Virus record (IMG/VR): IMGVR_UViG_2541047126_000023
DNA from: a virus
Lineage: Duplodnaviria; Heunggongvirae; Uroviricota; Caudoviricetes
DNA: 4,520 nt
Reading direction: 5' to 3' (one strand)
Below, in pieces: positions 3,479 through 3,600 of this stretch (its first letter is position 1; each line of letters opens with the position of its first letter). Both the position numbers and the translations under genes were made by a program. The notes under the pieces were generated by a model that worked only from the letters and a program-made list of their open reading frames with translations, did not search any database and had not been told where the DNA came from.

Positions 3479-3600
3479 CCGGATGCCGCGCCAGCGGCAT
3501 GTAGGGGCAGCTCACAAAACGGAAAAAATTGTACGCTAAGCCTCGCCAGGTGAACTGAATTCATTCCGATATGGGAATTCCCATATCGGGCGAAAACGGT

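Follow-up and report, generated by a model that had tools for sequence, protein, structure and literature searches.

A palindrome upstream of hok in an O157 lambdoid prophage: probable fossil of a KilA-N (BstA-type) gene and orphan copy of an intragenic dyad

BstA proteins are abortive-infection proteins of the KilA-N family, and to our knowledge neither their DNA target nor their trigger is known. The bstA gene is associated with aba, a self-immunity element of 63 bp composed of 29 bp upstream of bstA and the first 34 bp of the gene, which bears terminal CCCGCC direct repeats, is cognate to each BstA variant and is sufficient for immunity (Owen et al. 2021, PMC8585504). The element acts as DNA and not via a peptide or a transcript, and the same paper mentions no palindrome or inverted repeat (PMC8585504). 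Another short element with a bearing on the locus described here is the terminal inverted repeat (IR) of the Tn3 family, which is 38 bp long and has a GGGGT box (PMC9579193).

The locus in question lies in a segment of a lambdoid prophage of E. coli O157:H7. The window, that is, the whole stretch of 4,520 nt that was analysed, is 100% identical to O157 chromosomes and to the 'PPompW'/Stx2a phage records, and presents the order replication genes, DUF1627 gene, fimbrial pseudogene, paa and hok/mok/sok locus. The DUF1627 gene has its ATG at 1094 followed by an in-frame TAG (1145-1147), and the RefSeq CDS begins only at 1148; its N-terminus was probably lost through a nonsense mutation. The end of the fimbrial pseudogene, within an AT-rich stretch upstream of paa, contains a perfect 12-bp inverted repeat of its own (2496-2523; ATGTTGATTACA / TGTAATCAACAT, with a 4-nt spacer).

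The palindrome between paa and hok

The original prediction of a 24-bp perfect palindrome proved exact in both sequence and coordinates. The element, CCGATATGGGAATTCCCATATCGG, spans positions 3566-3589; its two arms of 12 nt are fully complementary and spacer-free, and the next pair outward, T3565/G3590, is non-complementary. Its centre is a GAATTC (3575-3580) and a second GAATTC is found at 3557-3562, both as predicted, while the claimed offset of 19 bp between them is 18 bp when measured start to start. When the window was shuffled 1000 times with its dinucleotides preserved, no shuffle gave a spacer-free arm of 12 nt or more, the longest being at most 11 nt: the palindrome is real and far from chance. 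The RNA of the region 3545-3612 folds with -28.1 kcal/mol (z = -4.2) and the DNA hairpin of the dyad with -10.2 kcal/mol (z = -4.2), and at the hok locus a strong hairpin can form in any read-through transcript. Rfam 15 has nothing overlapping 3554-3597, even at E values up to 1, and in an informal comparison none of the CRP, FNR, LexA, ArgR, Fis and lambdoid-operator sites is known to fit the dyad.

To the left of the palindrome stands paa (2688-3446, plus strand), which encodes an AcfC-family adhesin with an SBP_bac_11 fold and is the binding protein of the original prediction. Three blocks of homology converge in 3400-3600: similarity to plasmid paa-like genes ends at about 3506, the stretch ~3490-3551 matches unrelated plasmids (Xylella, Aeromonas, Klebsiella and others), and ~3543-3595 matches other E. 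coli prophages. On its right the paa island ends in a 38-bp terminal IR of the Tn3 family (3503-3540, plus strand), with its outer end GGGG at 3504-3507 and its inner end ..ACGCTAAG, and alignment with pVR50B identifies positions 3536-3550 of the minus strand as the last four codons and the stop (P-G-E-A-*) of tnpA, the Tn3-family transposase gene. The stretch 3503-3550 aligns with pVR50B and with Xylella pXF-CO33, the IR also matching many unrelated plasmids, and the ORF that runs into the IR on pVR50B, with the terminus ...RMPGEA*, encodes a Pfam DDE_Tnp_Tn3 protein (E 2e-137). Transposon homology ends at 3550/3551; a search of the window for a partner IR found none, and the remainder of the transposon is missing.

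A reading of the palindrome as a scar left by insertion or recombination of the paa island, or as a piece of the Tn3-family element, could be based on its closeness, 16 bp, to the point where the transposon remnant meets the phage backbone. However, the paa-less prophages OkiPb01703, SMN197SH3 and pNJS001-2 have the same palindrome with the same flanks, in the same place upstream of hokD and at the same distance from it. In these prophages a 34-aa hydrophobic ORF (MSDDISL..MDRLGN*; 3912-4016 in locus L004) is intact directly upstream of the dyad, and its stop TGA overlaps the first GAATTC; in the window, according to the alignment and to the paa-less annotations, the island has cut this ORF down to the final sense codon and the stop (AAC TGA, 3553-3558, plus strand). 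Since the palindrome stands behind the 34-aa ORF in prophages that lack paa, it is part of the phage backbone, to which the island was attached on the left of the palindrome, with a boundary 16-24 bp away, in the Tn3-family IR remnant. Together with the end of Tn3-family homology at 3550 and the lack of a second IR in the window, this leaves the island-scar reading, and with it the moron-boundary scar of the original prediction, practically ruled out. The looser suggestion of a recombination leftover fares better, as the palindrome may well be a residue of recombination, although the event would not be the paa-island junction.

An intrinsic (Rho-independent) terminator combines a G+C-rich hairpin with a U-tract. 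The possibility that the dyad is such a terminator, or a 3'-end stabiliser of an upstream transcript (that of the small ORF or of paa), is favoured by the strong predicted hairpin, located 7 nt past the small-ORF stop codon, but no T-run, and hence no U-tract, is present on either strand. Moreover, the terminator scan, which detected a terminator-like hairpin of paa (3453-3466) and the hok terminator (4006-4023), is silent at the palindrome, and paa already has that site of its own. The intrinsic terminator was accordingly rejected, in agreement with the original prediction, and the wider terminator-or-stabiliser reading appears highly improbable.

The proposal that the dyad regulates or insulates hok requires a closer look at the right side. 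The 5' part of the hok mRNA with the sok antisense region (3635-3784, plus strand) matches Rfam RF01794 with 103.9 bits, and mok (3725-3937), hok (3782-3937) and the terminator at 4006-4023 are found on the same strand. With +1 placed at 3635, the start of the Rfam sok/hok-leader model, the best hexamers are a -35 TTGCTG (3601-3606) and a -10 TAGGAT (3623-3628) with a 16-nt spacer, giving a putative hok promoter at 3601-3628 (plus strand). The palindrome, whose centre falls at about -57.5, has its 3' end 11 bp upstream of this -35 hexamer and is outside both the Rfam hok/sok model and the hok mRNA. As for the promoter itself, the putative -10 reads TAGGAT in the O157/paa lineage and TAGAAT in nearly all other hok loci compared, and the former may make a weaker promoter. 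Further downstream, a weak isrK-like Rfam match (3946-4027; 24.9 bits against a gathering score of 50, E 0.02) coincides with the part of the hok mRNA that contains the 3' fold-back and the terminator, and is probably just a generic hairpin-plus-terminator resemblance.

Homology to all hok loci of the window's class starts at ~3593 (AAAACGGTTTGC), directly right of the palindrome. This is also where similarity to hokW of 933W and hokD of strain M9 begins; there, a different small ORF abuts the promoter and the dyad is absent. In hok loci without the dyad, the ORF abutting the promoter is a hydrophobic one of 27 aa (MTWPEAF..CRWG*). Among 120 hok loci with the same promoter, the 16-bp core was found in 63 and one-base variants in 2, and the dyad was absent in 55; these shares are approximate, since the loci were retrieved by promoter pattern and the set overlaps the palindrome-selected loci. 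In a third arrangement, configuration C, the dyad is 22 nt further from the -35 hexamer. Closely related hok-linked copies show a dyad about as variable as its flanks, the variants including the loss of 1 nt from the left arm, a C>A change at an outer position, GGGGATTCCC (GGGG for GGGA) and CCTATA (CCT for CCC). Judging from these comparisons, the dyad is not an integral hok element, and an otherwise identical hok promoter can be present without it. A hok-specific operator or insulator, be it a site for a dimeric protein at about -57.5 or a read-through RNA hairpin that shields or controls the promoter, would fit the position immediately upstream of the -35 hexamer, the constant promoter spacing within configuration B and the RNA fold of -28.1 kcal/mol, which carries the hairpin into the -35 region. 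Nevertheless, about half of the same-promoter loci do without the dyad, which leaves the regulator or insulator originally suggested without support; the spacing shifts by 22 nt in configuration C; the dyad lies beyond the Rfam model; and the same sequence occurs within unrelated genes of many phyla. We consider this role very unlikely, and an operator for a dimeric transcription factor is disfavoured, as the promoter spacing differs between configurations B and C and many loci lack the dyad.

A conserved dyad within KilA-N and BstA genes

The 20-24-mer of the window palindrome is also present inside KilA-N/BstA genes, and most copies of its 22-mer lie within one gene family, at one protein position. 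The dyad-bearing family corresponds to Pfam KilA-N PF04383 (E 4e-27 and 4e-19) and its full-length enterobacterial type to BstA (PHROGs phrog_6287, E 3e-89; PADLOC, E 3e-21). In many of these genes the dyad occupies one fixed codon position, at about residues 57-66 (..S-D-M-G-I-P-I-S-E..), the genes being of BstA-type defence, cyanophage, Bacteroides phage and giant-virus MAG origin (L222-L301, L376-L455, L472-L478, L129-L221). Among cultured phages, Microcystis Mic1, Planktothrix PaV-LD and Bacteroides LoVEphage carry it at this position; four of the seven phages checked lack it, so the element is frequent and not universal.

Codon usage was assessed in genes sampled through an unrelated motif, QGTWVHP, from which 17 diverse representatives with 105 gap-free codons were taken. 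The D-M-G-I-P-I-S stretch is encoded by nearly fixed codons (GAT 16/16, GGA 13/GGG 4, ATT 15/ATC 2, CCC 17/17, ATA 16/16, TCG 12/12). Each of the other invariant residues (G, A, T, L, S, P, R) is encoded by 3-5 different codons, and variation of the dyad among the 17 is confined to the central AATT. In Bacteroidota, a clade that came from the palindrome-selected search, the genes have an identical dyad of 22-30 bp in the same place of the domain, read in another frame (..LLEE-RYGNSHIA-P..), and this second reading frame means that protein constraint cannot explain the dyad. In a second independent sample, drawn with the patterns MINATEM and QGTWM.E, other KilA-N clades present different dyads at the same codons, among them CGTTCGGGGAATCCCCCGAACG, CCGAACTTAGAAATTTAAGTTCGG, CCGTTAGGCTAAAATGCCTAACGG and CGATACGGGAATTCCCGTATCG. 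A palindrome arising by chance from the motif DMGIPIS was therefore ruled out, on the basis of the codon statistics, the RYGNSHIA frame and the clades that combine other peptides with a dyad.

The pairing itself also appears to be maintained. In 21 codon-registered sequences, 76% of the combinations at the 11 dyad pairs are Watson-Crick, versus 60±2% after column shuffling, with 76% reached in 0 of 2000 shuffles, although the sequences are related and this count is not a probability. When the partner columns were slid, the figure fell to 11-32%, and several true pairs show two or three Watson-Crick types. The mismatches (six G·T versus nine A·C) show no wobble asymmetry that would separate an RNA from a DNA form. 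Altogether, many KilA-N genes carry an intragenic dyad that is strongly conserved at the nucleotide level and seems to be undescribed: in the literature searched, KilA-N is never paired with a palindrome and the sequence never appears in a phage context, and a survey of viral mRNA structures that has KilA-N as an example does not describe the dyad.

A probable KilA-N gene remnant next to hok

The relationship between the window copy and these genes was examined with an nhmmer DNA profile of 17 KilA-N genes that had been collected without reference to the palindrome. The minus-strand segment 3597-3554 matched profile positions 111-154 (33.3 bits, E 6e-10), whereas the plus strand yielded only the bare palindrome, at 19.4 bits; the 14-bit difference between the strands is due to the flanks, and all the other hok-linked copies (L004-L006, L026, L076) show the same minus-strand advantage. 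The 44 nt at 3554-3597 (minus strand) are thus assigned, from the DNA profile and from the translation, to a remnant of a BstA-type KilA-N gene, with GTTTTCGCCCGATATGGGAATTCCCATATCGGAATGAATTCAGT in the window aligned to gttatctagcgAtatgggaAttcccAtatcggAattaattcAat in the consensus. The remnant translates as FSPDMGIPISE*IQF, which corresponds to codons ~55-69 of intact genes (..LSRDMGIPISELIQSF..); other copies read SPDMGIPISRLTQSVK (L076) and ISE*I--FK (L456), and intact genes LSRDMGIPISELIQSFK. The second GAATTC (3557-3562) is part of the same remnant and represents mutated E-L-I-Q codons: the plus-strand TGAATTCAG is the complement of GAA TGA ATT CAG, the ancestral form being GAG TTA ATT CAA. 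The PF04383 domain has about 107 residues. In the window no ORF for the domain is present, some 15 codons with an in-frame stop being left, and the flanks outside 3554-3597 are unrelated to KilA-N, so that a functional KilA-N gene was rejected. With 44 nt and in-frame stops, no protein can be made, and no BstA defence function can be claimed for the window.

Intact KilA-N/BstA-like genes that contain the dyad are found divergently next to hok in vB_EcoS-666R9 and in prophages of the E. coli 7/2 type, a locus present in 116 genomes at ≥99% identity. The order shared by these loci is replication genes, DUF1627, kilA-N on the minus strand, hok on the plus strand and nin genes. The homology that 666R9 and E. 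coli 7/2 share with the window starts no further upstream than the hok -10, and an ancestor having both an intact KilA-N gene and the exact -35 region of the window was searched for and not found. Seventeen configuration C loci, retrieved via the right flank, join three KilA-N-derived left flanks to one right flank. These copies retain more of the KilA-N gene, for instance SPDMGIPISRLTQSVK, and the dyad is intact in all 17, one of them being a GGGAATCCCC variant.

These observations could be integrated by assuming a lambdoid prophage in which a KilA-N (BstA-type) gene formerly sat immediately upstream of hok, in the opposite orientation. Deletions or recombination would then have stripped the gene, a step proposed here, leaving the dyad with about 10 nt on each side, and the paa island would have joined later, ending in the Tn3-family IR remnant left of the fossil. 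The palindrome in its present place would most likely be no dedicated hok control element. That it forms the core of a fossil KilA-N (BstA-type) gene beside hok we hold to be probable, even though the remnant is just 44 nt long, its flanks outside the dyad are moderately conserved (about 16 of 23 nt identical), the exact-junction ancestor is missing, and the flank similarity could equally mean that the functional element is wider than the palindrome. That this copy is moreover a plain relic, with no selected function at hok, is the reading we prefer, at about even odds. The dyad is, however, intact, or altered only in its central 4 nt, across four flank contexts (configuration B and three configuration C variants), and a pure relic would not be predicted to keep an identical 20-nt core in configuration C when 7 of the adjacent 17 nt have changed. 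This identity of the core amid changing flanks hints at constraint or at recombination within the dyad; a cis function may be retained at the window copy, and the dyad there can serve as an identity patch for recombination between phages.

Copies elsewhere and candidate roles of the dyad

The 16-bp core TATGGGAATTCCCATA was retrieved from at least 120 viral contigs, about half of them hok-linked E. coli prophages. Of some 41 other contexts, about 27 have a palindrome that reaches 3 bp or more past the searched core (counted by inspection; chance 1/64 each), with the extended consensus CG[A/T]TATGGGAATTCCCATA[T/A]CG. The 22-mer CGWTATGGGAATTCCCATAWCG was found in 93 stretches of species-representative genomes, as compared with a calculated chance expectation of ~0.1 for 596 Gb, the hosts including cyanobacteria, Bacteroidota, alpha- and betaproteobacteria, Xenorhabdus, Photorhabdus, Dehalococcoidia, Spirochaetia and Armatimonadota; this spread over many phyla counts further against a hok regulator. 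Its two W positions hold complementary bases in 71 of the 88 distinct contexts, about 55 being expected under independence. For 64 copies, again from many phyla, no KilA-N gene was present within the fetched flanks, and in 43 of the 56 orphans tested the flanks showed no KilA-N homology favouring one strand; the searches behind most orphans asked for an intact core, which makes their conservation partly a matter of ascertainment.

The surroundings of the orphans are varied. Some are bare and intergenic (e.g., L008, L020, L030, L048, L057, L097, L131, L168, L188 and L202), and in several of these the palindrome is perfect over 30-40 bp. L148, L197, L105 and L184 each contain two or three related dyads, which share the centre GGAATTCC and differ in their arms. 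In L020 (~6840-6930) the dyad lies between 20-bp direct repeats, GCAACCAATGCGCGCA(C)AAATT, beside an ORF of ~750 aa that is also near the dyad in L048, and this region may be iteron- or origin-like. Dyads of the KilA-N-remnant kind are found in or beside the lysis cassette (holin-, endolysin- and spanin-like genes, with a Q-like gene nearby) of Xenorhabdus, Photorhabdus and enterobacterial prophages (L146, L181, L196, L199, L218, L103, L037), at 66-73 nt upstream of the holin-like gene in L146, L181, L196 and L218. No neighbouring gene is common to all orphan dyads, the Xenorhabdus/Photorhabdus/enterobacterial subgroup being the only one that precedes a lysis cassette. In a comparison with REP and MITE sequences, several copies per genome were seen in Xenorhabdus and Photorhabdus and bare orphans in many phyla; most copies are inside KilA-N ORFs at one codon position, with no transposase link and no consistent target duplication.

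Could the dyad, then, be an element that is itself recognised? It might be retained as a cis-acting site for some factor, which could be the KilA-N domain itself (e.g., that of BstA-type proteins) or a protein that binds RNA or DNA hairpins, with the orphans persisting as decoy or immunity, regulatory or recombination sites. Several observations speak for such a role: the codon-level selection, the compensatory changes in the arms, the identical dyad in the other reading frame of Bacteroidota, the copies that lack a KilA-N gene or KilA-N flank homology in many phyla, the intact dyad in four flank contexts at hok loci, and the precedent of DNA-based self-immunity in the same gene, aba (PMC8585504). 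On the other hand, the dyad has no known binder, the orphan searches required an intact core, many hok loci do without it and the commonest hok-linked variants have imperfect arms; aba maps elsewhere in bstA and suffices for immunity (PMC8585504), and an intact KilA-N gene is absent from the 12 kb around the window locus. The flank swaps of configuration C and the KilA-N-free orphans would be expected if the dyad were recognised or if it were a preferred crossover between diverged phages, ascertainment weakening both arguments. On balance, a recognised and retained element is an unlikely reading. Slightly more credit, still tentative, may be given to a general form of it, in which the dyad would be an undescribed cis-acting nucleic-acid element of KilA-N/BstA genes (a ligand of the domain or an autoregulatory hairpin) distributed from enterobacterial prophages to cyanophages, Bacteroidota and giant-virus MAGs, the orphans persisting because they engage the factor as decoy or immunity sites or act as recombination hot spots. 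KilA-N domain ligand, mRNA hairpin and recombination site are thus candidate roles.

For the window, the proposed history of a phage backbone, a KilA-N fossil within it and a later paa island with a Tn3-family end would replace the account based on a hok operator or a moron scar, and the explanation at the level of the locus becomes an ordinary one, a gene fossil beside a later Tn3-associated moron junction. Beyond it, the dyad constitutes a specific and cheap candidate for a ligand or regulatory site of KilA-N and BstA, and would offer an explanation for the short islands of identity at mosaic joints of lambdoid phages.

The closest described systems can now be compared with the locus. The hok/sok type I toxin-antitoxin system (RF01794; hokD/hokW of lambdoid prophages) is its immediate neighbour, with the dyad 11 bp from the putative -35, but the dyad is outside the model and absent from about half of the promoter class, 933W hokW included. 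Ends and IR-only remnants of the Tn3 family are represented by the 38-bp IR and the tnpA stop region 16 bp to the left, whereas the palindrome is outside the IR and older than the island. Like aba, the dyad is a short nucleic-acid element embedded in the KilA-N/BstA gene family; unlike it, it is located ~170-190 nt inside the ORF, is an inverted repeat, has no CCCGCC and is common to variants and phyla, and given these differences in location and architecture an identity with aba was rejected. The KilA-N/BstA genes (PF04383) themselves are the nearest relatives, as 3554-3597 matches the DNA of codons 55-69 including the dyad and related prophages have intact members in the same position and orientation next to hok, the difference being that the window keeps just 44 nt with in-frame stops.
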